Virus record (IMG/VR): IMGVR_UViG_3300033149_001822
Location: 1-55,794 of that record
Strand: one strand, 5' to 3'
DNA from: a virus
Lineage: Duplodnaviria; Caudoviricetes
DNA length: 55,794 bases
A program made the translations under genes and the position numbers. Below, piece after piece: positions 13,736-44,900 of this stretch. Under the pieces are notes generated by a model. That model did not search any database. It saw only the letters and a program-made list of their open reading frames with translations, and was not told the DNA's origin. Numbering within the stretch: position 1 is the first letter of the stretch; every line of letters starts with the position of its first letter.

Positions 13736-14061
13736 TCAGACTAAAAATACTTTCATTCACGTTGGCGGTTCTGTCGATGCTCATGTGTGCATACGTTGTC
13801 CATGTGAAGGCCATGTTGGACGGTGAGCGAATTGTCAGAGTGACGCTGAACGAGAACATGGAGTTGAAGGAGAGGTTAATACGGTTGCTTGAGCTGCACC
13901 AGGCCAAGACGACGGAGCTTTTCCATATTAAGGTAAGGTTGGGGGAGGCATACCGTTCGACACTCTATAACTTGGTGGATGACCTTGGTTTGGACAGCAG
14001 GCCCAATGCAGCCACTATCATGCTCAGGAGGTTCGAGGGAGTAGGTGGGCCAGGAGGCTAG
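13732..14061 (+). CDS. Membrane-anchored coiled-coil protein
   Basis: N-terminal TM helix then heptad region. Confidence 0.55.
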   Translation: MIRLKILSFTLAVLSMLMCAYVVHVKAMLDGERIVRVTLNENMELKERLIRLLELHQAKTTELFHIKVRLGEAYRSTLYNLVDDLGLDSRPNAATIMLRRFEGVGGPGG

Positions 14062-23431: not shown

Positions 23432-24637
23432 ATGAGAATTTTTCAAGAGCAGATCGAGAGCTTGCAGAAGGCTGGATACGACCCGAGCGACGCACCTTGG
23501 TTGTTTGAGAATGAGGTGCGGTCGTCAAGGTGGTCCAAGTACTTCACCGAGCAGAACGATCTTAAGGAAGACAAGCGGCTGAAGGGTTTTGACATTTCCG
23601 ATGACGAGTACGAGATGCTCCGTCGGCAGACCGAGTGTCTGCTGGACAACGTCATAGCCGAGGCCAACGCCAAGAAGCGGAACATCCTGGCGGAAACCAC
23701 AACCACATCAGAGATCGAGACATTCACCACATGGGCGCTCCCGTTGATTCGGAAAATTTGGCCGAGGCTTTTTGCCAACCAGATGGTAAGTGTCCAGCCC
23801 ATGAAGGGACCGACCGGCAAGGCATTCACGTTGGACTTCGTGTACGGAACCGCAGGTGGTGCATATGCATCGGGAACCAGCATCTATGGAAACCCCGATT
23901 ACAATTACGCCAATGACCCCGGTGAGGGTGTAGAGCCGAAGGAAGTCAACCTGAAAATCACCGGCACCACGCTGACAGCAGTCGCCAAGAAGTTAAAGGC
24001 ACTGTGGAACATCGAGGCTCAGCAGGATCTTTCTAGCCAGCATGCCCTGAACCTCCAGAGTGAAGTCATCAAGATGTTGGGTATGGAGCTGGAACGAGAG
24101 ATCAACCGGACCCTTATCCTGGGTGTCTACAATGCGGCCACTACGAACACTACATGGACTGCCACGCAGCCTGCATCCCCAGACCCCTGGGCGAACGCTA
24201 CTCCGAGACAGTACAGGGAGAGCCTGTTCGACGCGATCAATGACGCCAACAAGCAGATATTTGACCGTGTGTACGTCAACGCGAACTTCATTCTGGCTGG
24301 TAGTGGGTTTGCCAATCGGTTGCGGAAGATCAACGGGTTCCGCCAGATTGACACGTCACCTGGCGAGGCGCGAATCGCTTCCGGCCCGAACCTGTTCGGC
24401 GTGCTGAAGGACCAGTACAAGGTGTACATTGATCCGTTCTTCAGCTCTGACCAGGCAATCATCGGGCACAAGAGCAATAACTGGATGTACACGGGCTACG
24501 TGTATGCTCCTTACATCCCACTGTGGAGTACTCCGGTCATCTGGAATACCAAGATGCAACCGGCCAAGGGCATCATGACGCGGTACGCGACGTTCGCAAA
24601 GAATGGGGACTTTTTTGCCACGATTACTGTGGTGTAG
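23432..24637 (+). CDS. Major capsid protein (T4 gp23-like)
   Basis: VSVQPMKGPTG, KLKALWNIEAQQDL, EREINR, YAPYIPL, GIMTRYA. Confidence 0.93.
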   Translation: MRIFQEQIESLQKAGYDPSDAPWLFENEVRSSRWSKYFTEQNDLKEDKRLKGFDISDDEYEMLRRQTECLLDNVIAEANAKKRNILAETTTTSEIETFTTWALPLIRKIWPRLFANQMVSVQPMKGPTGKAFTLDFVYGTAGGAYASGTSIYGNPDYNYANDPGEGVEPKEVNLKITGTTLTAVAKKLKALWNIEAQQDLSSQHALNLQSEVIKMLGMELEREINRTLILGVYNAATTNTTWTATQPASPDPWANATPRQYRESLFDAINDANKQIFDRVYVNANFILAGSGFANRLRKINGFRQIDTSPGEARIASGPNLFGVLKDQYKVYIDPFFSSDQAIIGHKSNNWMYTGYVYAPYIPLWSTPVIWNTKMQPAKGIMTRYATFAKNGDFFATITVV

Positions 24638-25360: not shown

Positions 25361-25600
25361 GTGGGGAGAACGGAAGGTGACGTGGTGGAAGTTCTTGTGC
25401 AACTGAAAGACTACCTGGCAGACAGGCCCGAGACAGCATTCCTTGCATTGACACTTGTGGCTCTGTTCTACATGTTCAGAAAATACGACAAGGCACGGGA
25501 AGCCCACCTCGTCACACTTTCATCAATCGCTCCCTTGGCTGATAAGCTGTGTTACATCATTTCCAAGGTCAAGAAGAAGACTGATAACGGTGGTGAGTGA
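25361..25600 (+). CDS. Small membrane protein, holin-like (tentative)
   Basis: One TM segment (TAFLALTLVALFYMF) and a basic tail. Confidence 0.45.
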   Translation: MGRTEGDVVEVLVQLKDYLADRPETAFLALTLVALFYMFRKYDKAREAHLVTLSSIAPLADKLCYIISKVKKKTDNGGE

Positions 25601-25800: not shown

Positions 25801-27057
25801 ATGAAAAGATTCATTGTTTGTTTATTGATGTTGTTTACGTTGCTGGTTCCTGAATATGTTGTCGCGGCACCGTACCCAGATGGGTGCTGTGACAACTCAT
25901 CTCAAGCTGCACCTGGCACCTGTTACTACATGACATGTGCTGAGAAGCGTGCAGGTTCTTCAATCACCGCTCCAGGGTATTTCAGGGTCATGGATTGGGA
26001 CAGTACGTTGCGGCTTGATGTTGAGTTGCTATCAACGATTGTCACAGGGCTGGCGAACACTCATCAAGGTGCCGTCGTGATCTCGACTGGCTTCGCGTAC
26101 AACGGGGTCGATTGGGACCCTGTTCTCGCGACCGCTGGCGTGCCTCACTTTGACCTGCGCGGGATAAATGGGATGACGCCGAACACTAATGGTGGGCTTA
26201 TGAACACTGGTACGTTGACAATGACGCTTGCCGACGATGATCCGGCAGTCATCGACTTGGCTGCGATTGAGGTCTTGCAGACAACTATTGCTGGTGACAC
26301 TACTAGTATAGATGCAGATACAACCACTATCGCGGCTGATACCACGTCGATTGACGCCGACACGACTGTAATTGCTGCTGACACCACAACGATTGCTGGT
26401 TGGACTTTGAACACGGGATTGATTGACGCGACTACACAGAGATTCACCATCGGCACAGATGACCTAGTGTCAACGCAACTTGGTTTGTTAGATTTCGTAC
26501 TCACACAGGCAGATGGTCAAGCGTTTACACTCAATGGTGCTGTTACGTCTTCATTTATGTATGCGGATAACGGTGCAACTGGTGACATGCTGAAAGTCGG
26601 TGCGACCAGAGCGTTGCAGGTCGAAGAAGTAAATGCACAACCTGGTGATGACAAGGCCAATGATTGGAAGAAAACCAAGAAGCAAGCAATAGCTGTTTAC
26701 ACTCATGCCAAGGAAGCAGATACAGCAGTTGACGAAACTGCTGGTGGTGACGTTGGCGACGAGGTTTATCCACCGACCGAAGTAATTGGCTATCCGAATT
26801 GGTGCGTTGTTTTCAAGAACGAGGGTGGTGGGTCTGCTGATATTTTGGATGATGCCGCTGTTTTAGTCAGTCCATCCAATGCTGCTGGTGAATGGGAGAA
26901 CTTGACTTTTACAGCTTGTGACACACTTGCAAGTGGTGCCGGTACTTGTAGCTATTGTTGTTCGAATTGTGCTCATCGGTACGTGAAGGCAGAGGCGCTT
27001 TGCGGTGCCGGTGATGACACGACTGTCACCGTTTGGATTACGGGCAATGTAAACTAG
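25801..27057 (+). CDS. Signal-peptide fibre-like protein with heptad repeats and Cys-rich ends
   Basis: MKRFIVCLLMLFTLLVPEYVVA|; DTT(S/T/V)I(D/A)A repeats; TCSYCCSNC. Confidence 0.65.
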   Translation: MKRFIVCLLMLFTLLVPEYVVAAPYPDGCCDNSSQAAPGTCYYMTCAEKRAGSSITAPGYFRVMDWDSTLRLDVELLSTIVTGLANTHQGAVVISTGFAYNGVDWDPVLATAGVPHFDLRGINGMTPNTNGGLMNTGTLTMTLADDDPAVIDLAAIEVLQTTIAGDTTSIDADTTTIAADTTSIDADTTVIAADTTTIAGWTLNTGLIDATTQRFTIGTDDLVSTQLGLLDFVLTQADGQAFTLNGAVTSSFMYADNGATGDMLKVGATRALQVEEVNAQPGDDKANDWKKTKKQAIAVYTHAKEADTAVDETAGGDVGDEVYPPTEVIGYPNWCVVFKNEGGGSADILDDAAVLVSPSNAAGEWENLTFTACDTLASGAGTCSYCCSNCAHRYVKAEALCGAGDDTTVTVWITGNVN

Positions 27058-27066
27058 GGGGCAGTA

Positions 27067-28305
27067 ATGAAAAAGTTTCTATTAGCTGCAATTATTTTTT
27101 GCAGTTTGTTCTTGATAGGTTCTTCGAGTCAGCGAGGCAAGCTGATTTACTCGATGCCGTACGAGACTCAGGGACAGAAAAACTGGTTCGCGACAAAGGC
27201 AGGGACCGGTGATTGTACTTCGTGGGACAATGCCTGTACGTTCAGGGCCGCGCTCGATAAGTGCACAACTGATTTGCAGGATAATATTTGGTTGTCACCA
27301 GAAGATCACGATACAGATAATGGATTGGATGCAACCGGAACAACTATCAGTGAATACAATATTCACATCTACGGATCTGGTGGGGAAAACGAATTAGGTA
27401 CTCGCATATACAATACTGCCGGTGCAGTTACTCATGTTCTCCAAATTTCAGGTCACAGAATAGCTTTTTCTAATATCCGATTTAATCAAATGGCTCAAGC
27501 AGATGTAGATATGACACTGATTAGTGTTACAGGTAATAGAATTACATTCAATGATTGCCAATTCAGATCTGCTACTGGTGCAGTCGCAGACATAGGTTTA
27601 CTTTTTGGAAACACCAGTCGTTATCATACGATAAATAATGTAAGGTTCGATGATTTTCAAACTGTTGCGTTCAGAACAAATGATGTTAATAATTCTGAAT
27701 TTAAAAGGATGAAATTTTATCGAAATGAAATTGCAATAGATATTACGCATGGTGACGATGACACTTTGGAATTCTGTAATACATTATTTGAGCATAATAC
27801 ATCTGCAATTGAAATTGCAGCAGGTGCAGATCAGGTAACATTTATTAGTCCTATTTTTATACATAATACAACAAATATTACTGATGGTGGAACATATGAT
27901 GGGTTGCATCTAATGAATCCAGTGTCAGCACATGCATCTGTTGCAATATTACCTGCTGATGCTGGTATAACAGTTACGGGCGCAGCCGGGGCATGGGCAC
28001 AGGGAGATCTTACCCAGATAATTGCAGCAGATGTGATAACGACACCATTTTTTGTTTTGGGTATTAATGTACAGTCTTCGACAGCAGCTAATACATACAA
28101 ACTCGAATTATTTTACGGTGAAGCCACTGAAGATGAATCATTAGGAATTTTCGAATTTACGGATTCAGATAAGAAAACAACTCCACCACCACTAGATATT
28201 CGACAAATGCCAATTCCACCAAATAGTTATATCGGAGCAAAAATTGCTTCTAGTTCTGGTGGTGCAGATAATGCAGTAATAACTATTTCGTATCTGGCAC
28301 TATAA
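27067..28305 (+). CDS. Signal-peptide protein with right-handed beta-helix (pectin-lyase-like)
   Basis: MKKFLLAAIIFCSLFLIG; GTGDCTSWDNAC; repeating I-x-N/F strands. Confidence 0.65.
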   Translation: MKKFLLAAIIFCSLFLIGSSSQRGKLIYSMPYETQGQKNWFATKAGTGDCTSWDNACTFRAALDKCTTDLQDNIWLSPEDHDTDNGLDATGTTISEYNIHIYGSGGENELGTRIYNTAGAVTHVLQISGHRIAFSNIRFNQMAQADVDMTLISVTGNRITFNDCQFRSATGAVADIGLLFGNTSRYHTINNVRFDDFQTVAFRTNDVNNSEFKRMKFYRNEIAIDITHGDDDTLEFCNTLFEHNTSAIEIAAGADQVTFISPIFIHNTTNITDGGTYDGLHLMNPVSAHASVAILPADAGITVTGAAGAWAQGDLTQIIAADVITTPFFVLGINVQSSTAANTYKLELFYGEATEDESLGIFEFTDSDKKTTPPPLDIRQMPIPPNSYIGAKIASSSGGADNAVITISYLAL

Positions 28306-28314
28306 GGGGCAACG

Positions 28315-29019
28315 ATGAAAAAGTTATTCTTTATTTTGATTGTACTGTTGTTAACGGTTTTTTTGTTGGGCCAAGGCGCATCGGATGAGGTGCGCCAGGC
28401 TAATAAAGTTGCTCGCGCAGCAAACGGAAAACTGGTTCGCATAGTCGGTGGGCCTGAACCGGCCGAGAATGTTGCGGTCAGTACTTCGGTACTTGGTGAC
28501 GTGGTGGAAGTTGCCAATCCTGGTAATGGATTGTGTCATGTAATTTTAGATGCGCGACCGATTGCGAAATCGATCATATTTGACGACGGCATGGAATACG
28601 TTGGCAACGTGCCGAATATTCCTGAATTGAAAAATGCGTTCGGGAAAGCAAGTTGGCCGGTAATGATTCCTGGTTCGTGTAATGGTGTGGGCGCGTGTAT
28701 GTGGTCTGCACTGTTTAGGGGTGCTGCGTGTTTGGCAATTGCGGAAACCGATTATTACGTTGGAAGTACGATGCACGAATTTCTAGCTTTGCCGCGTGGA
28801 CAGCAAAGACGGTTCTTGCGCGTGCGTGGGACATGTACTGAGAACGATTTAGAGCGCTCCTGTAGCGTTCCGATTGGTGATCCAAGGGCAAACGTAGGGT
28901 CGCCGGTTACAGTCCCGCACGGCTGGAGTGGCAGAATCGATTTGAATTATGTCAAGGCGCAGAACGGTAAGCCGAATCCGAGACATCCGAAAAAGGCTAA
29001 GAAGGTGGAGATCAAGTAA
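28315..29019 (+). CDS. Signal-peptide Cys-containing protein
   Basis: MKKLFFILIVLLLTVFLLGQGA|; 6 Cys. Confidence 0.65.
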   Translation: MKKLFFILIVLLLTVFLLGQGASDEVRQANKVARAANGKLVRIVGGPEPAENVAVSTSVLGDVVEVANPGNGLCHVILDARPIAKSIIFDDGMEYVGNVPNIPELKNAFGKASWPVMIPGSCNGVGACMWSALFRGAACLAIAETDYYVGSTMHEFLALPRGQQRRFLRVRGTCTENDLERSCSVPIGDPRANVGSPVTVPHGWSGRIDLNYVKAQNGKPNPRHPKKAKKVEIK

Positions 29020-31508
29020 TGAAAAAAATTATTTTCATTCTAGCTTTTCTTTTCTGCTTGCCGTGTATGGCGGGCGGGCTGAACGCTTCGTTCGGTGGTA
29101 GTCGATATACTGGCGGGACGAAAAATTCGACTGTTTTCGAATCGTGGGGAGATGTTACCGGGGCAAATGTATTAATTGATCACTCAGGATCTAATCTCCT
29201 GACTTATACAGAAGCGTTTGACGACGCGGCATGGACAAAAACGAACGTAACAGTAACCGCCGATCAAGTACGCGGCCCTGGGAGCTTGATGAATAATGCG
29301 GATCTATTAACACCTACCGCAGCAGATTCTTATGTTTACCAAGATGCAACTGCTGTCGTTGGTACGCAATACACTTGCTCGTTTTATTTGAGATCGGTTA
29401 CTGGAAATGCGAACCTTTCGATTCATGCTTATGATCAAGCCCATGGAACAATTTTAGGAACTAAAGAAATATTAATTACTCCATATTGGCAGAGGTTTTA
29501 TGTGTCGGGAATTTTAGTAGCTGGCGATACGGATGTTGGTTGTACGATTGGTGGAAATACGACCTGGAGTACTGGTGAAAATATTTATGGAGTAAGAGCG
29601 CAAACAGCGGAAAATAATGAATGGAATACCAATCTTGGAATTTATCATCCAAGACTGGCGGGAACGAATAAACCATTATTGGATCTTGCCGACAATAACG
29701 ATCCGACAAGTGCTTACACGGATTTGCAAAGTTCAGATGGCAATCGATTACCGGCAAGAGAATTTGTGTCAGCGTCTACCCAGGATTATCGATTAGCACA
29801 CCACGATTCAATGGATGTGTTTGATGAGGACCACACGTTAACGATGTATGTGAATCAGGATATTGCTGCTCTAGGGTTTGATCGTATATTTTCACATGCT
29901 ACAGCTTCAAGTGGTATGGATATATATTCGCAAAATCTTACAAATTGGCGAGCAAGGTATCGTGGAGCAGGATCGACTTCTGTAAATATTGATTGTCCGA
30001 TTATAACAACCAACACTAATTTATATGGGATAATTCAACTTGTAAGACAAAATAATATAGTTATCTGTTATTTAAATGGAGTTGCCGGAACTCCCATAGA
30101 TGTATCTGGATTTGGTGTTGATGGTGATGCGACTCTGTACATAGGAAGTGAGGGTGGAAATTATTTTGACGGTAAGATCGGCTATGCTCGCCTCGATGCC
30201 GAAGCACTCTCAACCGACGACTTGGCCGCAGACCGCGAAAGGATTTTAGGGATTGCTACGAACTGGAGTCGAGATAACCAGTGGAGCTTTGAAAGGTCAA
30301 CGGTCGCCACGAAGCAGTTTTCAGCCGGTGGCGCGAATGCTTTGACGCCTACACTAGTTCAAGTACCGGCGAATGTTGCGAGGGTTGCAGGTAAAGGATC
30401 GGGAGTTTTAATTGAATCGCAGAGTCAGAATGTATTTTTACAATCTAATAATTTTCCTGTCACATGGACACAATTAAGATTAACATCTATTACTAATAAT
30501 GGAATGCAATCTCTTAATGGAAATATGGAAGGTGATGGACTTGTAGCAGATGTTCTAAATGCTAATCATGGTGTTTATCAACTTCCCACATTAACTGCAA
30601 CAACGTATACTTGGAGCGTTTTTGCAAAGGCAGGAGATCATGATTGGTTATTCTTATTAAATAATACTGCACCAAACCCTCAAGCGTATTTTAATTTAGC
30701 AACCTGTACTGCTGGTAGTATTGCTGGTGGTTCATTATATTCTCATGCAGAACCATACCCCGATGGTTGGTGCAGATGTTCAGTAACTTTTACAGGAACA
30801 GCAGTTGCTCATAGTTTGTTTTATATTACCGCTATATCGGATGGTGTAACCGCTTTTATTGGCGATACTGTAACTGTTAATACGTGGTTATGGGAAGCTC
30901 AAATAGAACCATCACCATTTCCAACTAGCCCAATTTCTACTACAAATGCAGCAGTCACCAGGACGGCTGATGATTTAACGATTGATCCCCATCCCGCGAA
31001 CACTAACGAGCGAATCCTGCCAGAACTATTTGCGCCTGGGACACCAGCGGATAAGTTGAGCGTTTACTTTGAAGCAAAATGTGAATGGTCGGGTAGTGTT
31101 GATATTGGTGAACATAGATATTTGATGACGATAAGTGGCAATGGTGGAACAGCAGCATGGAATCGTAATAGATTTTGGATTTATACAACATCTGCTGGTA
31201 TTGTAAGTACAAGACTTTATGACAATGGCAATACTCAACGATATATGGATTCAGCGGTTGATCCTATAGATTTTGATGAATGGTTTTCTATTAGAATGTT
31301 ATTCGATTTTACAGATTTGAGTAGATCGATGCAATGGATAAATGAAGTTGAAAATATTACAGGTGGTGTGAATAATATGACTGGTACTGCTACATTTAAT
31401 ACTAGTGATGTATCAATAAGAATAGAACAAGCATATAATGGACTTATAAACGGCAACTGCCACATCCGAACGCTCAGAATAAACAACAAAGAAATTCTCG
31501 CACCATAA
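29019..31508 (+). CDS. Signal-peptide LamG/carbohydrate-binding spike or fibre-like protein
   Basis: MKKIIFILAFLFCLPCMA|; NLLTYTEAFD..AW; YLNG...YIG...YFDGKI; GVLIESQSQN; FPTSPISTTNAAVTRTAD. Confidence 0.75.
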   Translation: MKKIIFILAFLFCLPCMAGGLNASFGGSRYTGGTKNSTVFESWGDVTGANVLIDHSGSNLLTYTEAFDDAAWTKTNVTVTADQVRGPGSLMNNADLLTPTAADSYVYQDATAVVGTQYTCSFYLRSVTGNANLSIHAYDQAHGTILGTKEILITPYWQRFYVSGILVAGDTDVGCTIGGNTTWSTGENIYGVRAQTAENNEWNTNLGIYHPRLAGTNKPLLDLADNNDPTSAYTDLQSSDGNRLPAREFVSASTQDYRLAHHDSMDVFDEDHTLTMYVNQDIAALGFDRIFSHATASSGMDIYSQNLTNWRARYRGAGSTSVNIDCPIITTNTNLYGIIQLVRQNNIVICYLNGVAGTPIDVSGFGVDGDATLYIGSEGGNYFDGKIGYARLDAEALSTDDLAADRERILGIATNWSRDNQWSFERSTVATKQFSAGGANALTPTLVQVPANVARVAGKGSGVLIESQSQNVFLQSNNFPVTWTQLRLTSITNNGMQSLNGNMEGDGLVADVLNANHGVYQLPTLTATTYTWSVFAKAGDHDWLFLLNNTAPNPQAYFNLATCTAGSIAGGSLYSHAEPYPDGWCRCSVTFTGTAVAHSLFYITAISDGVTAFIGDTVTVNTWLWEAQIEPSPFPTSPISTTNAAVTRTADDLTIDPHPANTNERILPELFAPGTPADKLSVYFEAKCEWSGSVDIGEHRYLMTISGNGGTAAWNRNRFWIYTTSAGIVSTRLYDNGNTQRYMDSAVDPIDFDEWFSIRMLFDFTDLSRSMQWINEVENITGGVNNMTGTATFNTSDVSIRIEQAYNGLINGNCHIRTLRINNKEILAP

Positions 31509-31518
31509 GGGGAAAGTC

Positions 31519-34107
31519 TTGAAAAAAATAATCACAATCCTATTTGCAATTTTCCTTGCGACAACTGCAACCGCTCAACAGGAGTACGGACAAGCAAATT
31601 TTAGTAGATCGGACGCATGGACAAAAGATGGACTGAAAGCCCATTGGTTATTAACTCCTGGTACTCGCGGTGATGCAACACAAGGAACGGGGGACTTTGA
31701 AAATTGGACTTCGGGCGGATCTTGTTTTACTTGTCCTGATGCTTGGAATTGTGCTTGTACGGGCACGACCACTCTAGCGGCTGAAACAACCCATATCTAC
31801 AAGACCAATACCTCCATAACATCGGCTGGTGCTACGGGAGCATCTTCAATTTATTTCGAAAAAACTTTTGAAGCGAATAAATGTTATCAGCTTTCTCTGA
31901 AATATCGGGGTGGAACTGGAGGGGTAGAGGATTTCCAGATTCGGATCGTGGATGCGGGAAATACTGATTATTATAATTTTGCTACAGATACATGGCAAGC
32001 TGGTGCTACACAACAAGCGTATGTGAATATACCTGTTGCGTGGACAGCTACTAGTTTGTTTGTCAGGACTGGCGCAGCGGTAAAAACTGATTATCGTATT
32101 TATATTACCACGACTTCTACACATACATTCTACTTTGATGATTTTCAATTGCAAGAATTATTTACTTGCGATGTTTTATCACCAATAGGTGCTAATAATC
32201 TTTCTGTTCCTGTCGGTAGTGATCCTTTATGGAATAAATCTTCAGAATCATTAATTAGGCCAGGAGCAAGTACAGGACCGGCTGGTTCTTATGGAATGTT
32301 GCTCGATGGGACTGATGATTACGTAGAATGTGCCGATGGCGATTGCGAGATGGACCCGGTGAATTGGGAAAGTGGTGGGTTGTTTAGTTTTGCTTGCCGG
32401 TTGATGACTGATACGGTTGCGGCTGGAACTGATTATATAATTACTAAATGGAATAGTGGTGGTAATCAAAGAAGTTGGATTATGGGTAGGGATACTGCTA
32501 ATTTATTTTTCTTTATTTCAGATGATGGAATAAATACTGATAGTAATGGTATTGCGATGTTTACAGAAAATACATTACAATCTTTTGTATCTACTTTTGA
32601 TCCGTCTGGTGGTTCTGGTGCTTGCATTAATAATTTGTATTATAATGCTTATCAGTTAATTACAGATGCTACAATGACCGAATGTATTCCGTTTAATACT
32701 ACTGCTGCTTTTCAAATTGGAGCATTGTCAGGGGCATCTACCTGGTCTGGTGGACTTTTTGAATGCACCCTATGGGACGGAGTACTTTCTGCAATCGATG
32801 CCAACAAATATATCTCCCCATATTTCCCTGGAAATAATAACGGAGATGGTTTCTTCGTGGATACTTGTGGACAGGTTGCTTCGCACAGTACTTGCAGCAC
32901 CCAAAAATGTCGCGATGGTACACCCAATGAGTGCCAAGCCGAAGGAACCGGGGTCATTGCGAATTTTGGTGCGTACACCGAAGTTATTGACAACAATAGT
33001 TACGAAACTCGCACTGGCACTGATGACGATCCAGCGTTTACCGGCTGGACCGAAATTGCCAACGTTGGCGATGGTGGTCGTGCAGACCTGACAGCATATC
33101 GCGCCGATACCAAGCACGGTGATATTTCTATGCGAATGAACGTCAAGGGTGGCGATACTGCCGTAGCATACATATCGATGACTTCGCCTTGTCATAATAT
33201 TGCGCCGGGTTCAACAGTCTACGCGGAGATCGCAGCAAAGGCACTTGAAGGTGATACCAGCATTAGGATTTGGGTTCTCGAATACGTGGGTGCTAACTGT
33301 GTGGGCGCGGGTCCGGGAACTTGGGTTGTCAATGATGTTGAAGCAAGTAGCGAATGGAAAGTTTACGGTGGGCCAGCGACGTTGACCGGTTCGGCTGCAA
33401 GCGTATCGGTAGAAATCTTGGCTCGCTTGGACCCAGGTGAGGCGGGTAGTTTGCTGGTTGATACCGCGAGTCTGAAAGTAGCGGATTATCACACGCCATG
33501 GGCGCACAATCCAAGCGGGGATGTGACGACGACTTACAATTTGAGAGATTATCGATTACACAATCCATTGAGCGATTATGTTGAGTCGGAAGATGGATAT
33601 GCATATGAGTCTGGATTTTGTGCGAGTACTTGGGTTTATACTGATTGGGATGGTGATGACGGAGTAGTACATTTTATGGTTCAAGTTCCTGATACTGGTG
33701 GAACTAACAATATTATTCAGTTAAGAAAACGTGGAGATGATGACATATATTTTTATGTTTACGATGGTGCTGGTGCAGCACGAACACGATCTTTATCAGT
33801 AACATCTGTAAATTGGACTGGTGGAAATTGGAAATATGCAGAAGCGTGTTCAGATAATACTGGTACGATGGTCGCGCATCATTACAATGTTGAAAACGAG
33901 ACTTGGTATGCTTGGACTGATGAAGGTAACGTTGGTACTGGAGTTCAAGATGATCAATCTGATGAATTTCATATTGGACATGCGGGTGGTATCACCTTCC
34001 TTGATGGCTACCAGAACCACGTTTTTATTTCTCCATATTCAGATATTTATCCTATGAAAGGTTTTAATTCTGGAAGACCACCAGTTAATGATGGGAGTCC
34101 GTATTGA
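31519..34107 (+). CDS. Signal-peptide LamG/CBM-like fibre protein, Cys-rich
   Basis: TTG start; MKKIITILFAIFLATTATA|Q; GLKAHW; LDGTDDYV; about 20 Cys. Confidence 0.75.
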   Translation: MKKIITILFAIFLATTATAQQEYGQANFSRSDAWTKDGLKAHWLLTPGTRGDATQGTGDFENWTSGGSCFTCPDAWNCACTGTTTLAAETTHIYKTNTSITSAGATGASSIYFEKTFEANKCYQLSLKYRGGTGGVEDFQIRIVDAGNTDYYNFATDTWQAGATQQAYVNIPVAWTATSLFVRTGAAVKTDYRIYITTTSTHTFYFDDFQLQELFTCDVLSPIGANNLSVPVGSDPLWNKSSESLIRPGASTGPAGSYGMLLDGTDDYVECADGDCEMDPVNWESGGLFSFACRLMTDTVAAGTDYIITKWNSGGNQRSWIMGRDTANLFFFISDDGINTDSNGIAMFTENTLQSFVSTFDPSGGSGACINNLYYNAYQLITDATMTECIPFNTTAAFQIGALSGASTWSGGLFECTLWDGVLSAIDANKYISPYFPGNNNGDGFFVDTCGQVASHSTCSTQKCRDGTPNECQAEGTGVIANFGAYTEVIDNNSYETRTGTDDDPAFTGWTEIANVGDGGRADLTAYRADTKHGDISMRMNVKGGDTAVAYISMTSPCHNIAPGSTVYAEIAAKALEGDTSIRIWVLEYVGANCVGAGPGTWVVNDVEASSEWKVYGGPATLTGSAASVSVEILARLDPGEAGSLLVDTASLKVADYHTPWAHNPSGDVTTTYNLRDYRLHNPLSDYVESEDGYAYESGFCASTWVYTDWDGDDGVVHFMVQVPDTGGTNNIIQLRKRGDDDIYFYVYDGAGAARTRSLSVTSVNWTGGNWKYAEACSDNTGTMVAHHYNVENETWYAWTDEGNVGTGVQDDQSDEFHIGHAGGITFLDGYQNHVFISPYSDIYPMKGFNSGRPPVNDGSPY

Positions 34108-34874
34108 AACACGATCAACGAAAATATAAATGTTCTGTTAATGGTTGTGCTAATTGGGGCTATGCTAAAGGGTTATGCCATAAACATTACGAACGTAATA
34201 GAAAGTTTGGAACACCAACGCCAACAAAAGAAGATGGTTTTAATGAACGACCGATTATTACCACCACTAGAAAAGAAAGACGAGAACAAAAAGCAAAGCA
34301 AAGAAGATTAAATCTTAAATTGAGATCAATTGCATATAAGGGCGGAGCATGTATTTTATGTGGTTATAATCGTTGTTCTAAAGCATTAGATTTTCACCAT
34401 GTAGACCCTTCGCAAAAAGAATTCAACCTTAGTGGTGCATATGACAAGTATAAAAAAACTTGGAAAGAATTAATGGTTGAGTTGGACAAATGTGTTCTTC
34501 TTTGTAGTAATTGTCATAAAGAATTAGAGGCAGGATTTTTTGAAGACGATTTTGTTAATACAGTTGCCCGTCCACCAAAATCGTGCGCCCTCATTAAAGT
34601 ATGTTCAATTACGGGATGTGAAAATGAGGTTATGGCAAAAGGTCTTTGTACAAACCATTACCAAAGAAAACTGAGTGGAAAATCTGTTGAATATATACAT
34701 ATAAACAAAGGAAAAGTTTGTTCTGTAGAAAACTGCAATGTTGAAGCACATACTAAAGGGATGTGTCGAATTCATTATAGACGGATGAAAGCACATGGAA
34801 CAATTGAAGAACCGATTACGGGGCGGTGGGTAAATAGGAAACCGCCTTGCAACGACGGAAAGCAGCCGTACTAG
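34104..34874 (+). CDS. Free-standing HNH homing endonuclease
   Basis: YKGGACILCGYNRC..ALDFHH.DP...KCVLLCSNCH; three CSxxxC...KGLCxxHY repeats. Confidence 0.85.
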   Translation: MKHDQRKYKCSVNGCANWGYAKGLCHKHYERNRKFGTPTPTKEDGFNERPIITTTRKERREQKAKQRRLNLKLRSIAYKGGACILCGYNRCSKALDFHHVDPSQKEFNLSGAYDKYKKTWKELMVELDKCVLLCSNCHKELEAGFFEDDFVNTVARPPKSCALIKVCSITGCENEVMAKGLCTNHYQRKLSGKSVEYIHINKGKVCSVENCNVEAHTKGMCRIHYRRMKAHGTIEEPITGRWVNRKPPCNDGKQPY

Positions 34875-34912: not shown

Positions 34913-35617
34913 ATGGCAGTCACACTTTCAAGTCTTGCAGCGGAAGTCAGGGAGATGGCGGCAGACCCGGACATCACGGAGCTTCCTGATTCAAAGATCG
35001 AGAACATCCTGGACAAGAGGGTACTGAGGTGGATAAACCGTCGCCGTCCTGGCAAGGCTATAAGCTACTTCGAGACAGTGGCCGCACAGCAGGACTACGA
35101 CGAGAAGCCGTCCAATGCTTACCGCGTCACGCAGGTCTGGTGGATGGACGCCAACTTCGAGTTTTTCAGCCCTTCCATGAGGTACGTCCCGAGCGATCAG
35201 GATATGACGTTGCAGATGAGCGGGTTCAATGTGCTCGATAACCCGGCGCTGGTGGAGGCGTTCTTCAAGAAAGTGGACGCCTATAAGAACAACTTCAAGG
35301 GCCATGGCGAGGAGAACGAGGCGGGCCTCATCAGGTTAGTCCCCTATCCTGCCAGCACAGGCGACAAGGTTTACTACGAGTACTCATATCCCATTTGGAG
35401 TGCCGTCAAGGACGTGAGCGAGGTGTTCCTTGAGGGTGTGAGGTTCAAGGCTACCGAGCTGGTTTACGATGTTTTGGCAGCAAAGAGGGGAAGGGTCCGT
35501 TCTGGCCGGACGTTCACAGGAGGTGGTGGTGCTAACGAAAAAGAATTGGCAATCAAGTACGGTAAAGAGGCTAATCGCGAGGTCCCAGTTTCCTCGGCGG
35601 TGTTCTCCAGAGGATAG
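34913..35617 (+). CDS. Head-tail adaptor/neck protein (putative)
   Basis: TLSSLAAEVR..., IRLVPYP...YYEY pattern; position. Confidence 0.6.
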   Translation: MAVTLSSLAAEVREMAADPDITELPDSKIENILDKRVLRWINRRRPGKAISYFETVAAQQDYDEKPSNAYRVTQVWWMDANFEFFSPSMRYVPSDQDMTLQMSGFNVLDNPALVEAFFKKVDAYKNNFKGHGEENEAGLIRLVPYPASTGDKVYYEYSYPIWSAVKDVSEVFLEGVRFKATELVYDVLAAKRGRVRSGRTFTGGGGANEKELAIKYGKEANREVPVSSAVFSRG

Positions 35618-35619
35618 TC

Positions 35620-37542
35620 ATGAACTACAAGATGAAGGTTGAGCTTACGTCACCGGACGGCCAGGTGATTGTGACGGACAAGGTGACTCCGGTAGTCGGT
35701 AGGTGTCAGCGAATAAAGAGGGATATGGATGTAGTCAAGGAGTGGTGGGAAGGGAAGTCCATTGACCTTATAGTAGTGGCAGATGGAGAACTGCATCATT
35801 TCCAGAGGTGCATTTCAGTCCTTGCCGAACGCACTTCCGAGTGGTGCAACTGCAAAATGATAGTTGTCAATGATTACGACTTCAATTCTGACTTTATGCA
35901 AAGAATGATATTCGAATCCTCGTTCATCAGCATGTTGGTTCATTACGTTGACATCAGCAGCCTGAAGGCAGTCGATAACACGATCAAGGAAAATACCTGG
36001 GGTAATTGGATAGTAATCGTTGACCAGAATGTTGTTGTCACTGAGGGTTGGCTTGATAGGATAATCGCCACGATACACGCGAATAGGAACGCTGCAATGG
36101 TAGTTCCTTGGAGCAGCAAGCGGATACCGCCTGAGATGGGTGGTAACTATGTCGAGACAGCAGAGCGAATATCTAGGACAGTCAGCATCGCGAATCATAT
36201 GGTTGCGTTGCCGGGCCTGTTTTGCCTGGCTATAGAGCGAGAAGCTTTCGAGGAAGCTGGTGGGTTTCTAGACGAGTCGGTTGCCAACTTGTACATGAGG
36301 ATGAGTAGGAACGGTAGGATCGCTATTCGGGCTGACGACTGTTACGTAAAGGACAGCACCAAGGGCGTTTCCGAGGTGGGTAAGTGGTTGTTGGACCCTG
36401 TTGATTACATGAAGTTCATCAACGAGTGGGGTAAGGATTCATACGATGCATATGAGATAAGGGCTGGCCGGGATATGGCTGATGAAACGGTTGTCATGAT
36501 GATGAAGGAAAAGACGGACAGAAAAAAAGTTGTGTTCGTCATGCGTGAGGCACCGATCTGCGGGATGGTACTCGCGATAGTCCACATTTGCAATGAGTTG
36601 ATAGAACTTGGGTGGGATGCTTCCTTCGCTTGCACGAAGCTTGAGAATGCTCACAAGAAACTCATGCCCATGAGGTTTACTCCATACGTGTTCCGCGACG
36701 ACGTGGAGATGATAGACACTTTGCAGAAATTGTCAGACGCCAATATCATTGCAACGATTTGGTCCACGGCAAAGACTGTCAAGAAGATATGCGACAACAA
36801 AAACAATCTTGTTCCTGCCTACTTTGTGCAGGACGACGAGCGGAAGTTTCGTCACAGTAGCGGTGAGCTTTACGCCAAGCCAAAGGACGTGGAGGCAACT
36901 TATGGAATGTTCAAGAATGTCGTCGTCAATTCGGATTGGGTACTGGAGGAGATGCAGAAGCTTGGATATGCCGGTGAGAAGATTGGCATTGGGGTTGACA
37001 CCCTCATGTTCCACCCTGAGGAAAAGTCAAATGGTAGAGTTCGTATTATGGCACATTGCAGACCTTCAACCCCGAGAAGAGGTTGGTCGTTTATTGCTGC
37101 GGTTATAAACCAGGTATTCAAGAACGGGAACGTGGAGTTCGTTACATACGACGAGGAACCGGAGGGACTGTACGTTCGCAATCACAGGCACCTGGGGAAA
37201 ATTAGCCCCGAGCAGCTTGCAATGGAAATGAACCATACGCACATCTTCCTCGAGGGGAGCGAGCGCCAGGGGTGGGGGATGCAAGCCCTTGAAGCCATGG
37301 CCAGTGGTTGTGCGCTCGTGTGTACGGACAACTACGGAATCCATAACTTCGGAACGGATGGCTACGATTGCGTGATAGTTCCATATGCTGACGTTGAAAA
37401 CACTGTAAGGGTAATCAACAGGCTGGTAGGTGACGTGAAGGAAAGGGAAGCTCTGGCGAAGTCTGCGAGGGAAACGGCGGAGCATTTCAACTGGCCGGTC
37501 ATAGGAAGTGCATGGGATAGGTTCTTGAAAAACACAAGGTGA
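35620..37542 (+). CDS. Bifunctional GT2 + GT4 glycosyltransferase
   Basis: VTEGWLDR...GGFLDE (GT-A); GWGMQALEAMASG.ALV (GT-B). Confidence 0.85.
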   Translation: MNYKMKVELTSPDGQVIVTDKVTPVVGRCQRIKRDMDVVKEWWEGKSIDLIVVADGELHHFQRCISVLAERTSEWCNCKMIVVNDYDFNSDFMQRMIFESSFISMLVHYVDISSLKAVDNTIKENTWGNWIVIVDQNVVVTEGWLDRIIATIHANRNAAMVVPWSSKRIPPEMGGNYVETAERISRTVSIANHMVALPGLFCLAIEREAFEEAGGFLDESVANLYMRMSRNGRIAIRADDCYVKDSTKGVSEVGKWLLDPVDYMKFINEWGKDSYDAYEIRAGRDMADETVVMMMKEKTDRKKVVFVMREAPICGMVLAIVHICNELIELGWDASFACTKLENAHKKLMPMRFTPYVFRDDVEMIDTLQKLSDANIIATIWSTAKTVKKICDNKNNLVPAYFVQDDERKFRHSSGELYAKPKDVEATYGMFKNVVVNSDWVLEEMQKLGYAGEKIGIGVDTLMFHPEEKSNGRVRIMAHCRPSTPRRGWSFIAAVINQVFKNGNVEFVTYDEEPEGLYVRNHRHLGKISPEQLAMEMNHTHIFLEGSERQGWGMQALEAMASGCALVCTDNYGIHNFGTDGYDCVIVPYADVENTVRVINRLVGDVKEREALAKSARETAEHFNWPVIGSAWDRFLKNTR

Positions 37543-37546
37543 AGAT

Positions 37547-37756
37547 ATGATAACAAAAAAGACATTTTGCAAAGAGAAGTTCTTTACCGAGAAGAGACTT
37601 ACCAACTGTCCTTTTTACATAATGAAGACCCATACGGATATGGCTTGCAGTCTTTCTGACAAGATCGTTATTTGCAATTACGAGATCGACCACAAGTTTC
37701 CAGAAGATTGTCCGATGAGGAATGATTCCGTAACTCAGATATTTTTCATAGAATAG
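37547..37756 (+). CDS. Small Cys-rich protein
   Basis: CPF...CSL...FPEDCP. Confidence 0.5.
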   Translation: MITKKTFCKEKFFTEKRLTNCPFYIMKTHTDMACSLSDKIVICNYEIDHKFPEDCPMRNDSVTQIFFIE

Positions 37757-37764
37757 AGAATAAA

Positions 37765-39051
37765 ATGTCCAGACCATCAATTTGTTTTTTGAATCCACCT
37801 CATCCATATCTTATTCAGCCGAAGGCACAGGCCCCACTCGGGATGCTTTACGTTGCGGCTTCTGTGAGAAAAGCTGGATTCGATGTTAAGTTCGTTGACC
37901 TGAGTGACAAGCAGTATGGAGATGATTTCAATCTGCCAGAAGCAGACATTTATGGAATCACCGGGACAATACTTGATGTAAAGTCAATACATGTAGTGGC
38001 AAGGCAGATCAAGAAGAACAACAAGTGGAGCAAGATAATTGTCGGTGGTCCTGTATCACTCAGTCCGGCGCACCTCGATGCAGAATTGGTTGATTCCATT
38101 TTGATTGGGGAAGGTGAGATTGAGATATTCAATGTGCTGGAAGACTATCCCAGATTGAAGTCGTTCTACAAAGCAGACAGGATAACAGACCTCGACTCGC
38201 TTGAGTTTCCCGCTCGTGATCTGTTAGGTACTCATCTTGGGGGCAATGTCTTTGCCCGTTATCAGAAGTACTATGAGGGAGGGAGCACGGTCATATCCAT
38301 GAGCAGGGGTTGCCCGTTTGATTGTACATTTTGTGCGTCACCGAGGATATGGGGAAGGAGGATTATTCACAGGAGCGCGGAGAGTGTGGCTGCGGAAATA
38401 GATGAGGTCGCTGAAAGGTATGGTGTCAGACAGCTCAGGTTTAGCGACGACAACATGACGTGCGACAGGGATAAACTTGAGAGTCTTTGCAGGCACCTCC
38501 TGGGAAAGAAGATTGCTTGGCGTGCGAGCATACGTGTACGCCCGAACGATGTTGACATGTTCAAGATGATGAAGAACGCCGGATGTGTCGAGGTGTGTTT
38601 CGGAATAGAGAGTGGTGATCCGAATGTTCTCCATACTTTGCACAAGAAGGCGACTGTCAAAGAAAACAGGATCGCAATAATGAACGCCAAGGAGGCAGGA
38701 CTTGTCGTTCGAATATTGTTCATGATAGGTACTCCTGGTGAGACAGTTAAAACGGTTGACAGGAACATAGAGTTCTTGAACAGTGTTGACAAACATTACG
38801 ACACCATTGCCATCACGAACTTTACCCCGTTGCCAGGGACGGCGGTAGCAGACGATCCTGGCAGCAATGATTGCGAGATTCTTTGCTACGATGTAGACAA
38901 GTACAATCTTTGTTTATACGGCCCTGATGGTAAGCACAACGAGTGGGAGAATCATATTCGACCGTTTGGTCTTACGTTGGAGCAGTTGACCGAGAACAAG
39001 AAGCGAATGGTGAAGTTCATAATGGAAACAGGGAGAAGTAACAATGGCTAG
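37765..39051 (+). CDS. Cobalamin-binding radical SAM enzyme (class B methylase type)
   Basis: PLGMLYVAA, IIVGGP, SRGCPFDCTFC, FSDDN, FGIESG, FMIGTPGET. Confidence 0.9.
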   Translation: MSRPSICFLNPPHPYLIQPKAQAPLGMLYVAASVRKAGFDVKFVDLSDKQYGDDFNLPEADIYGITGTILDVKSIHVVARQIKKNNKWSKIIVGGPVSLSPAHLDAELVDSILIGEGEIEIFNVLEDYPRLKSFYKADRITDLDSLEFPARDLLGTHLGGNVFARYQKYYEGGSTVISMSRGCPFDCTFCASPRIWGRRIIHRSAESVAAEIDEVAERYGVRQLRFSDDNMTCDRDKLESLCRHLLGKKIAWRASIRVRPNDVDMFKMMKNAGCVEVCFGIESGDPNVLHTLHKKATVKENRIAIMNAKEAGLVVRILFMIGTPGETVKTVDRNIEFLNSVDKHYDTIAITNFTPLPGTAVADDPGSNDCEILCYDVDKYNLCLYGPDGKHNEWENHIRPFGLTLEQLTENKKRMVKFIMETGRSNNG

Positions 39052-40075
39052 GCTGAAGATTCTGGTTTTCCATCCGAAGGAGTGGGTGGGAAGCAGCAAC
39101 GAGAACGTGGAGGTCAGGCATGTGTCGATTGGTGGCAGCATTCCAAGGAGGCTCAACGGGACACCTTCGGAGGATGGTATAGGTGAGGTTGCAGACTCCG
39201 AGGGGATACGCAACTTCATGGACGCGGTTGAGCAGTTCCGACCGGACATTTTTCTTTTTGGGATACACTTCCAGTTCATGCCTTCATACGTTGCCAGAGC
39301 AAGGGCAATGTGTCCTGAGATGAAGGTAGTTATGCATTATACCGACCAGAGGAAGGATGTTCACGATGATGTTGGGAAGTACCTCGGTTTGATTGACTTG
39401 TTGTTGGTGACTAACCAGGACGAAGCAGACCATCAGAAGTATCGTGACTTTGGCTTTCCGAAGGTTGCCACGTTGTACGATGGGATCAATCCTAACAAGT
39501 ATTATCCAATGCCTGTAGAAATCAAACACGATGTCTTCTTCGGAGGGAACAATCACTATGGATTGTACGAGAGCATAAAAAAGTCTGGTCAAAAACCACC
39601 AGAGGTTCTGAACTTTTCGAAAGGAAAGTTTCGCCATGATTTCCTGATGGAGGTGAATAGCCAGTTTGATTTGCTCGTGCGTGGTCGGTTGGGGTGGGAC
39701 GAGCAGGTGTTTTATGTGAAGCCGATGAGGTTCCACCCGAGATATTTGTCTGCTATCAGGGAGGCCAAGATAGTCATAGGGACTGCTGTGGCTCCCCGTT
39801 ACAAGCTCTATATGCGCAGGATGTGGAGGGGGATAGCGTCTGCCAGAATGTTGCTCATGGAATACGTGCCGGGAATGGAAGAGGACTTCGAGAACCACGA
39901 GCACATGGTCTGGTTCAGGACGATAGAAGAAGGAATTGACTTGATCAGATATTACTTGAATAACGACGACGAAAGGGAGAGAATCGCCAAGAGTGGATAC
40001 CAGTTGATACTGGACAATCATACTTGCGATCACAGGCTGGATGAGTTCGAGCAAATTGTCAGGAGGGTTTTCTAA
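39044..40075 (+). CDS. CgeB/YkvP-like GT-B glycosyltransferase, paralogue 1
   Basis: DVFFGG...AKIVIG...R...FENHEHMVWF...YYL.ND.ERE.IA..G...HT..HR. Confidence 0.8.
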   Translation: MARLKILVFHPKEWVGSSNENVEVRHVSIGGSIPRRLNGTPSEDGIGEVADSEGIRNFMDAVEQFRPDIFLFGIHFQFMPSYVARARAMCPEMKVVMHYTDQRKDVHDDVGKYLGLIDLLLVTNQDEADHQKYRDFGFPKVATLYDGINPNKYYPMPVEIKHDVFFGGNNHYGLYESIKKSGQKPPEVLNFSKGKFRHDFLMEVNSQFDLLVRGRLGWDEQVFYVKPMRFHPRYLSAIREAKIVIGTAVAPRYKLYMRRMWRGIASARMLLMEYVPGMEEDFENHEHMVWFRTIEEGIDLIRYYLNNDDERERIAKSGYQLILDNHTCDHRLDEFEQIVRRVF

Positions 40076-41079
40076 TGGGCAAATCGACAGCAGTAGTCTT
40101 GCATCCAAGGGATTGGGAGAGGTACGAATCAACTTTGAAGATCGTTCATGCTTCCATAGGCGGCAAGGTTCCCAGGAAGCGGGACGGGACGGCGACGTTC
40201 GACGGCTATGCTGACGTGGTGACAGAGGAAGGCAAGCAAGATTTGTTCGACAAGATAGAGGAGTACCATCCAGAGATTTTCCTATTTTGGATGCACGTCG
40301 GAATGAACCCACAGATCATAAAGAGGGTAAAGGAGATTTCTCCGAGGACAAAGATAGTTGTTTGGCATGGGAACCATCGCTACGAGTTCCCGCACGGTGT
40401 CAGGATGTACCTCAAATACCTCAGCATGGTGCTCATCAACTCCCGTGAGCCTAGTCAGTACAAGATGTACAAGGATGGCGGTGTACCTAACGTGGCGACC
40501 TTGTGGGACGGGTTTAATCCTGACGACGTGGAGCTTGAGGACAAGGAACCTGAGTTCGATTGTATATTCGGTGGCAACTCGTATTTGGGAAGGACTAACA
40601 ATCTACCGGGACAGGATTTTCCAGGTGGTCTGCTCAGATACAATTTGATTGTCGAGGCAAACAAAAGGTTCAACGTTGCTGTGCTTTCTGACGTACCAGA
40701 GGGTTGGCCATTCAAGGTGTTGCCAGCGGCATTCCACCCTAAGTACACGAACGAATTGCGAAGGGCAAAGATAACTCTGAACATTAACCATTTTCCAGGT
40801 TTTTACCAGGCGTATACGAGGCGAACCATTCGCAGCATTTTTGCCAAGCGTCTTCACCTGACACTGTATATCCCAGGCATGGAGGAGCATTTCGAGAATC
40901 ATGAAAATATTGTCTGGTATCACGACTTGAACGAGGCGATGGAGTTGATTGGTTATTACCTTGAGAACGATGACGAGCGCGAGGAGATAGCTGAAAAGTC
41001 TTGGATGCACGCTTGCAAGCATTTCACATTTGAGAATAGACTTAGAGACTTTGAGAAAATTGCAAAGGTACTATTATGA
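40075..41079 (+). CDS. CgeB/YkvP-like glycosyltransferase, paralogue 2
   Basis: Same motifs (AKITLNI, FENHENIVWY). Confidence 0.8.
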   Translation: MGKSTAVVLHPRDWERYESTLKIVHASIGGKVPRKRDGTATFDGYADVVTEEGKQDLFDKIEEYHPEIFLFWMHVGMNPQIIKRVKEISPRTKIVVWHGNHRYEFPHGVRMYLKYLSMVLINSREPSQYKMYKDGGVPNVATLWDGFNPDDVELEDKEPEFDCIFGGNSYLGRTNNLPGQDFPGGLLRYNLIVEANKRFNVAVLSDVPEGWPFKVLPAAFHPKYTNELRRAKITLNINHFPGFYQAYTRRTIRSIFAKRLHLTLYIPGMEEHFENHENIVWYHDLNEAMELIGYYLENDDEREEIAEKSWMHACKHFTFENRLRDFEKIAKVLL

Positions 41080-44884: not shown

Positions 44885-44900
44885 TAAAGAGGATAATAAC

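Follow-up and report, generated by a model that had tools for sequence, protein, structure and literature searches.

Predicted Sec-type leaders on five consecutive fibre/lectin-type proteins encoded in the head module of a tailed phage

In the window analysed here, the whole 55,794-nt stretch of IMG/VR virus record IMGVR_UViG_3300033149_001822 (Duplodnaviria; Caudoviricetes), we found that five consecutive plus-strand genes (25801-34107, here P1 to P5), encoded downstream of the major capsid protein (MCP) gene, specify fibre/lectin-type proteins that all begin with Sec-type N-termini, as the first-pass annotation had quoted them. Judged from their sequences and those of their homologues, these proteins are very probably exported by their leaders and folded with disulfides outside the cytoplasm. 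The fuller statement, that the set is made late, folds in the periplasm and docks on finished particles at lysis, is a tentative proposal that may well prove wrong. We advance with somewhat greater reserve the generalization that a clade of large tailed phages builds part of its virion in two compartments, with capsids and tails made in the cytoplasm and Sec-exported, P3-aided fibres joining them at lysis.

Leader calls were rule-based and comparative, drawing on anatomy, hydrophobicity and homologue alignment, and hydrophobicity was scored as H10, the best 10-residue Kyte-Doolittle mean within the first 35 residues. The same anatomy recurs in all five proteins: MK(K/R), then 11-16 uncharged hydrophobic residues, then a short c-region with small residues at -3 and -1. 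In P1 (25801-27057, 418 aa) the leader spans about residues 1-22 (nt 25801-25866), with MKR, a 13-residue core and a predicted end at VVA/A (the slash marks the cleavage position), and in P2 (27067-28305, 412 aa) about residues 1-21 (nt 27067-27129), where the exact cleavage point within (G)SSS/Q is uncertain. P3 (28315-29019, 234 aa) has the longest hydrophobic segment of the five (residues 1-22, nt 28315-28380) and the weakest site (GQGA/S); signal peptidase may remove this segment, or it may stay in place as an anchor. The leaders of P4 (29019-31508, 829 aa) and P5 (31519-34107, 862 aa, TTG start) cover residues 1-18 (nt 29019-29072) and 1-19 (nt 31519-31575) and are predicted to end at CMA/GG and ATA/QQ, respectively. 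No lipobox ([GAS]-C at the cleavage position) is present in any of the five. Their H10 values of 3.0-3.8 are the five highest among the 61 open reading frames (ORFs) of the window, none of the other 56 exceeding 2.78; with 5, 6 or 8 of the 61 counted as leader-like, five would stand in a row by chance with a probability of about 1e-5, 5e-5 or 5e-4, respectively. Short leaders of 18-22 residues resemble the diderm type, which is a weak hint as to the host. The hydrophobicity runner-up to the five, a 118-aa ORF at 10078-10434 with a lipoprotein-like start (MKRLLLILWIVLQGC) and 9 Cys (7.6%), is the only other strongly leader-like ORF of the window and has no Pfam, NCBIfam, PHROG or PADLOC match.

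The five genes are tightly packed inside the head module, with Shine-Dalgarno-like sequences (GGGGAG, AGGGGG, AAGGGG or GGTGGAG) 5-8 nt before each of the five starts, and the stop codon of P3 overlaps the start of P4 at 29019, P3 being translationally coupled to P4. They had been placed between the capsid and the head-tail adaptor, directly after a holin-like gene. The upstream edge is firm, the gp23-type MCP gene (23432-24637, plus strand) matching Pfam Gp23 at 1.5e-55 and phrog_138 at 4.8e-53; the downstream edge is a probable adaptor gene (34913-35617, plus strand) that matches PF24175 (SU10_adaptor) only weakly (8.2e-4; 20.3 bits, below the 27-bit cut-off), with a syntenic homologue at 13298-13999 in the related locus L002. 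The holin-like label did not hold up, since the ORF at 25361-25600 has no Pfam, PHROG or PADLOC family and only a modest hydrophobic stretch, with no 19-residue window at a Kyte-Doolittle mean of 1.6 and a best 10-residue mean of 2.24.

Among relatives, the leaders are kept as a feature and not as a sequence, and their length varies too. The search with P4 gave 51 proteins including the query, all of which were examined, and 18 of them form an orthologue tier (E <= 4e-98). A leader is present in 16 of these 18; the remaining two, P0050 and P0053, have their starts at or within the mature region and are perhaps truncated gene calls. With the L002 orthologue added, leaders are found in 17/17 N-terminally complete orthologues, each with a net-basic n-region, a core of 7-19 residues and an AxA-like end 0-2 residues before the invariant G20. 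The mature start that follows is itself conserved, reading 'GLQASF.GSR' in the orthologues and GGLNASFGGSR in the window P4. Distant proteins that share the head-spike-fibre domain of gene transfer agents (GTAs) with P4 have a Sec-like leader in 0/33 cases. One of these 33, the 544-aa protein P0093, combines a GTA head-spike-fibre-type region with a prepilin-type N-terminal leader (PF07963) and appears to be a fibre domain mounted on a pilin-like anchor.

For P5 we aligned 17 sequences, namely the query, 15 of 20 relatives and the homologue from locus L003, with the short P0014, P0016, P0018, P0020 and P0021 left out. Fourteen of the 17 begin with a leader of 20-45 residues and variable sequence, and the three leaderless relatives (P0009, P0011 and P0013) start with MSN[DE]-YG, 3 residues before the invariant Y23. 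As this start coincides with the predicted mature end of the leader-bearing forms, that end is a natural start of the protein. The forms with and without a leader are collinear over about 98% of their length, both termini included, which suggests that they have the same partners and work once the cell has lysed; the surface of an intact cell is out of reach for a cytoplasmic form, and the shared function is therefore probably a post-lysis one.

The P3 family, collected by an exhaustive profile-free search, comprises 100 representatives at 50% identity, 77 of which are at least 200 aa long and were taken as the full-length set, with the first 70 residues scored. An N-terminal hydrophobic segment scores at least 2.5 in 46/77 and at least 2.0 in 73/77. 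By eye, these N-termini include classic signals, lipobox-like ends (...FAC/S, ...LSC/G, ...PAC/Q and ...AGC/G) and Gly/Ala-rich membrane anchors, and such switching among three N-terminal kinds is what would be expected of a protein whose body lies outside the cytoplasm. In the P1 family, leaders are rarer: they occur in 5/25 matches (P0023, P0024, P0026, P0028 and P0042), and the other 20 are leaderless, most of them opening with the common 'MADNF...' fibre N-terminus. At the level of the whole module, L002 (from the same phage as L005; P5 49% identical) has leader-like N-termini in all five corresponding ORFs, the second of which is an unrelated 216-aa protein and not a P2 homologue. In L003 (2594-7665) and L004, a leader-bearing P5 homologue lies just upstream of probable terminase/portal genes, identified by reading only, and not in the interval from capsid to adaptor; the position of the module is therefore not fixed across the clade. 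The survey of homologues that had been proposed as a check thus came out in favour of conserved signals.

Leaderless cousins of the set are found together in L008, a locus of another phage that lies on a public contig of 79.7 kb. Large ORFs with matches to 'virion structural protein' PHROGs (9.5e-34 and 3.5e-17) are followed there by a P1-like gene that lacks a leader (C-terminal domain 37% identical, 8e-28), a 143-aa protein 26% identical to the C-terminal domain of P2 (3e-6), a leaderless P5-like gene (43% identity) and, 1.5 kb further on, a leaderless homologue of the first half of P4 (33%, 3e-36); no P3 homologue was seen by reading through the 15.5 kb of the locus. The P5-like gene has its ATG directly after a stop codon, and the 847-aa protein exactly fills the frame from stop to stop, which leaves no room for an in-frame upstream leader. 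A leaderless set of P1, P2 C-terminal domain, P4 and P5 thus exists in a virion context, and it is strongly supported by these homologies that the five window proteins descend from, or are kin to, virion proteins. The 'virion-type' label of the first-pass annotation is borne out in the same way for the family, by leaderless L008 homologues beside virion structural genes, and for P4 by the domain matches given below.

One reading that dispenses with export takes the hydrophobic N-termini as docking peptides for base pockets at the capsid vertices, or as tethers on the cytoplasmic side. Its attraction comes from RcGTA, as described in PMC7296036, where a hydrophobic N-terminus on a head fibre need not be a signal: the head fibre decorates capsid vertices and binds capsule polysaccharide, and its hydrophobic N-terminal peptide, the Leu-Gly docking repeat IALGLGLGL at residues 2-10, binds the pentameric jelly-roll base protein Rcc01079. 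P4 has the domain of this homologous fibre, which is known as Rcc01080 (GhsB, PDB 6tb9, NF048003); it has it twice and, like Rcc01080, is encoded in the head module. Unlike Rcc01080 (325 aa), P4 is 829 aa long, begins with a Sec-type leader, has LamG-like domains in addition and differs in its mature N-terminus. In the window leaders the n-regions are basic and the ends are of the AxA type; orthologues differ freely in leader sequence and length, unlike a peptide fitted to a conserved pocket; several P3 relatives carry lipobox-type ends; and leaderless relatives start right after the leader. By the positive-inside rule, moreover, an N-terminal Lys-Lys places the body of the protein outside. 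A PDB search with P1, P2, P3 and a 203-aa protein found no base-protein homologue at E<=5. We regard docking or tethering peptides as very improbable.

The cysteines point in the same direction as the leaders, less through their number than through their distribution. The five proteins hold 55 Cys in 2755 aa (2.0%), with 12 in P1, 6 each in P2 and P3, 11 in P4 and 20 in P5. The earlier comparison of 20 in P5 with one in the MCP is correct, but the density is less striking than had been implied: other head and tail ORFs stand at 0.84% (0.51% without the intein-bearing portal) and the glycosyltransferase island downstream, whose products are cytoplasmic, at 1.51%, so the raw content is raised and not exceptional. 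Twelve P5 Cys are invariant (69, 72, 78, 80, 450, 459, 464, 472, 558, 594, 701 and 777), and the variable ones occur paired in the same sequences, as at (19,25) in 5/5, (271,276) in 10/10, (369,389) in 9/9, (688,695) in 6/6, (828,830) in 4/4 and (122,217) in 5/5, with 128/177 and 293/416 as further co-varying pairs; in P3, Cys pairs are co-lost likewise. Structural disulfides would be expected to leave such a pattern of paired gains and losses, and these alignments thus point to them. Leaderless forms also have fewer cysteines, in comparisons that treat related sequences as independent and so overstate the case: mature P5 has 13-15 Cys without a leader and 15-29 with one (exact Mann-Whitney p 0.006, n = 3 + 14), the P1 family median is 0.89% without and 1.46% with (p 0.003, n = 20 + 6), and the P4 median is 0.5% in distant leaderless fibres and 1.05% in orthologues (p 2e-5, n = 32 + 16), kinship being ignored in all three. 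The single contrast that stands out most clearly is in the C-terminal domain of P1, with 7 Cys in the window protein and 1 in its leaderless L008 homologue. With leader conservation, leaderless starts at the mature end, paired Cys and fewer Cys in leaderless forms all agreeing, the earlier suggestion of export with disulfide folding outside the cytoplasm is well supported.

The five proteins are predicted to be carbohydrate-binding in type. P4 is the most clearly assigned, matching NF048003 (GTA_spike_fiber) at 3.5e-48 (164.5 bits against a 36-bit cut-off) in two copies, with GTA head-spike-fibre domains at nt 29172-29603 and 30408-30968 and a LamG-like domain after each. It also matches the RcGTA head spike fibre structure (PDB 6tb9_F3, 1.4e-20), the tail protein family phrog_5939 (1.7e-30) and tail-fibre proteins of RcapMu-type phages, and the 'LIE...PTS...VTR.AD' motif, named earlier as typical of phage spikes and fibres, proves to be the end of its GTA head-spike-fibre domain. 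NF048003 has no match at E<=0.1 in P1, P2, P3 or P5. The window P4 and P5 themselves have no Pfam match at E<=0.01; P4 orthologues carry PF13385, PF02210 and PF02018 (LamG, CBM_4_9), and PF13385 is precomputed on 9/20 P5 relatives and on many P4 orthologues. The AlphaFold2 model of P5, built from the 17 sequences (pLDDT 73, pTM 0.47), has four beta-sandwiches at about residues 35-215, 258-432, 485-655 and 670-840, a Cys-rich linker (434-483) that is poorly modelled, and a conserved tail at the C-terminus that closes with ...PPVN.G.PY. Its Foldseek matches are CBM/LamG-containing extracellular proteins, at low TM-score because the domains are arranged differently. From the P4 domains and the P5 model we conclude that the two proteins are paralogous in architecture, with a shared predicted plan of a CBM-like jelly-roll followed by LamG, twice over; in P4 the jelly-rolls are the GTA head-spike-fibre domains. 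The P5 family was not found in one genome each of 185,579 cellular species scanned with the P5 alignment and therefore looks phage-specific.

P1 has a Cys-rich N-terminal domain, 7-residue 'DTT(S/T)I(D/A)A' repeats at about residues 162-200 and, at about residues 285-418, a discoidin-like C-terminal jelly-roll, for which ESM Atlas structure matches to small viral proteins and F5/8-type-C domains serve as a lead only. Its repeat, 'DDPAV.DLAAIEVL...IAGDTTSID', is common to many leaderless phage fibre proteins, and P1 is predicted from sequence features to be a repeat-shaft protein with a discoidin-like tip. A possible likeness of P1 to XepA was not used, the Atlas feature match of 0.84 falling below the bar. 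TRF found no DNA-level tandem repeat in the five genes. P2 is predicted to form a right-handed beta-helix over about residues 25-390 with a small C-terminal domain at about 289-409; its Atlas model (pTM 0.63) agrees with the beta-helix called earlier, aligning at TM-scores of 0.54-0.57 with NosD/Beta_helix and viral 'pectate lyase family' clusters, and its match to TIGR04247 (NosD family, 1.4e-4) lies far below the cut-off. P3 is a confidently modelled globular alpha/beta domain for which no structural relative was detected; it would be a small new-fold protein that faces the envelope. No usable match came from a PDB sequence search with P5, P1, P2, P3 or the 203-aa protein, and neither P2 nor the other four match a catalytic family in Pfam or NCBIfam.

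Granting export, the proteins could be released at lysis as free lectins or glycan-cleaving proteins that condition matrix, capsule or debris. All the evidence for export serves this possibility equally, the pectate-lyase-like beta-helix of P2 would suit it, and gain or loss of a leader would be tolerable in a protein that acts only after lysis. The strong conservation of both termini and the fibre-type domain of P4, which serves attachment in RcGTA, suggest a bound partner instead; about 2,750 residues of non-catalytic lectin arrays would be a heavy investment for free factors, and no catalytic family was matched. Release as free factors therefore seems to us distinctly improbable.

A further possibility is that the exported proteins never join virions and act on the envelope of the infected cell, masking or cleaving receptor glycans, the fibre genes having been exapted for this use. 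Effects could include superinfection exclusion, sparing of progeny from adsorption to cell debris, or surface remodelling together with a ten-gene sugar-modification island that starts 1.5 kb downstream, with P3 as a membrane anchor. T5 Llp and lambda Lom are exported phage proteins that are encoded among structural genes and act at the host envelope. The five proteins resemble them in carrying leaders and in being encoded among structural genes, and an exported receptor-blocking protein encoded within the structural region is likewise described for Cor of N15/phi80-type phages in PMC4936722, so that exported receptor-blocking lipoproteins within structural clusters form an established pattern. 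The leader and disulfide evidence fits this reading as well as any other that involves export, the P3 family changes among signal, lipobox and membrane-anchor forms in the manner of envelope-resident proteins, and the P4 of close relatives is only 43-52% identical, with a 140-aa insertion, against 79% for P5, a divergence of the kind shown by receptor-tracking proteins.

Several observations speak against such a role at the envelope. Homologues that are full-length and collinear yet leaderless would have no access to the cell surface while the cell is intact, and the function shared by both forms is therefore not masking before lysis. In a diderm host, soluble Sec substrates go no further than the periplasm, and the Pfam search revealed no outer-membrane, type IX secretion system, autotransporter or cell-wall sorting domain. 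Cor, Llp and Lom are small, not fibre-like and unrelated in sequence, whereas the five proteins are much larger (234-862 aa) lectin/fibre proteins with leaderless homologues in virion context, and their leaders, unlike those of Cor/Llp-type lipoproteins, have no lipobox. PADLOC gave no matches on the window, and neither a flippase-like multi-transmembrane protein nor an excess of N-glycosylation sequons ties the five to the sugar island (P4, 11 observed and 11.1 expected; P5, 9 and 8.6). On balance, we consider action confined to the envelope unlikely, though a serious competitor to docking on virions.

The explanation that we favour, docking at lysis, starts from a part that is strongly supported. 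The host Sec machinery very probably moves the five fibre/lectin-type proteins out of the cytoplasm, signal peptidase I cuts just before the conserved mature N-terminus (P3 perhaps staying uncleaved), and structural disulfides form in the oxidising compartment. The remainder is more tentative: made late with the head genes, the set would be stored and oxidatively folded in the periplasm, would come into contact with completed particles only once lysis breaches the inner membrane, and would then dock as adhesive head or virion fibres, with P3 possibly acting as an envelope-side chaperone or holding platform. Late docking is favoured because the genes sit in virion modules both with and without leaders, because P4 has a head-fibre domain, and because T4-type fibres and decorations can bind finished particles. 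Hoc, Soc and the long tail fibres of T4-type phages bind completed particles, can be added in vitro, and fold in the cytoplasm without leaders; the window phage is like these phages in its T4-type portal, protease and capsid genes, and their late binding makes docking after membrane breach physically conceivable, although Pfam and PHROG found no homology of the five to T4-type decorations or fibres. Host Sec is also used by the filamentous coat proteins pIII and pVIII, which are virion parts, and by Sec-dependent and signal-arrest-release endolysins. Filamentous phages assemble at the membrane and are extruded, whereas HK97-type particles are built in the cytoplasm, and the window phage, unlike filamentous phages, has HK97-type capsid, portal and tape-measure genes.

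A number of points weigh against docking at lysis or the scheme that leads to it. We know of no case in which a virion protein of a tailed phage carries a cleaved Sec leader, and the open-access literature yielded neither a leader-bearing tail- or head-fibre protein of tailed phages nor any characterised equivalent, as the first-pass annotation had supposed; with no known precedent, the prior for docking at lysis is low. No PDB match to the RcGTA-type base protein Rcc01079 was obtained, as noted above, and the mature N-terminus of P4 is without the Leu-Gly docking repeat of Rcc01080. The large glycosyltransferase island that follows also fits surface remodelling, and 'periplasm' is itself an assumption. 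The 12 invariant P5 Cys persist in leaderless forms, and the first four of them (CxxCx5CxC) could be a metal site, which counts against a simple rule linking Cys to leaders, as does the Cys-rich (2.38%) protein P0022, which is yet called leaderless. Finally, the P5 tree is too unresolved to polarise leader gain against loss.

The window is a whole linear virus record with a CheckV completeness estimate of 22%. All credible genes are on the plus strand. Besides the MCP gene, they include a T4-type portal gene with an intein (15131-17953; PF07230 6.3e-34, Portal_T4 at aa 115-393; Intein_splicing 6.7e-8 at aa 413-777) and a gp21-type prohead protease gene (PF03420), and a tape-measure gene is found at 50382-53780. 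The capsid protein is about 24-26% identical to its counterparts in the nearest isolated phages, and scans of viral contigs with the MCP and with the P3 alignment gave no matches. From the capsid gene to the tail genes, the order is three small ORFs, the five genes, an HNH endonuclease gene, the probable adaptor gene and the sugar-modification island (35620-47142), whose ten genes include a GT1-type fusion, a B12-binding radical SAM enzyme, a methyltransferase, further GT1 and GT2 enzymes, a nucleotide-sugar epimerase and four tandem paralogous Glyco_trans_1_2 genes (39044-43116). Glycosylation of the five proteins by this island through a periplasmic route was considered and dropped, given the chance-level sequon counts and the lack of a flippase-like multi-transmembrane protein. 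The nearest cellular matches of the epimerase in a pattern-limited scan are Bacteroidota metagenome-assembled genomes at about 50% identity; the window, however, uses strong Shine-Dalgarno sites, which are unusual for Bacteroidota. Scans for promoters and terminators gave about as many matches as chance would (28 with 26.9 expected, and 14 with 12.8), and no tRNA genes were found in the window.

The HNH ORF (34104-34874; PHROG HNH families down to 6.5e-27) overlaps the stop codon of P5, and its end, ...KPPCNDGKQPY, copies the conserved P5 tail, which reads ...RPPVNDGSPY in the window and ...SPPCNDGKMPY in P0002 (79% identical). The two DNA copies of the tail (34060-34107 and the end of the HNH ORF) differ at most codons, and the gene has the look of a homing endonuclease that entered close to the 3' end of P5 and has since become fused to the former end of that gene. 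At the HNH position, L002 has a PAPS-reductase-like gene. Elsewhere in the window, the ORF at 23-553 matches beta-glucosyl-HMC-alpha-glucosyltransferase (phrog_842, 5.4e-16), which hints at hypermodified DNA in this phage, the ORF at 553-1509 encodes a radical SAM/SPASM protein, and a 720-aa ORF (11573-13735) upstream of the portal gene, where a large terminase might be expected, has no Pfam or PHROG match.

The accepted view is that assembly of tailed-phage virions takes place entirely in the reducing cytoplasm. Exported proteins are familiar in phages, and so are fibres; a conserved module of fibre-type proteins that all have leaders is not, and proof that these proteins join the virion would make it categorically new. 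What we describe is a whole virion-type fibre/lectin module that consistently bears export signals throughout a clade of uncultivated phages, with leaderless versions in a virion module elsewhere, and it includes in P3 a widespread family that has a confidently predicted fold and no known relative. If the proteins rejoin particles, virion assembly in these phages would span two compartments and use the host disulfide machinery, a route not described for any tailed phage and one that would explain the disulfide-stabilised adhesins of some environmental phages. If they are envelope-bound instead, this would be a conversion of receptor-binding modules into exported, surface-acting proteins on an unprecedented scale. 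In both cases, the module predicts processed N-termini and dependence on DsbA.

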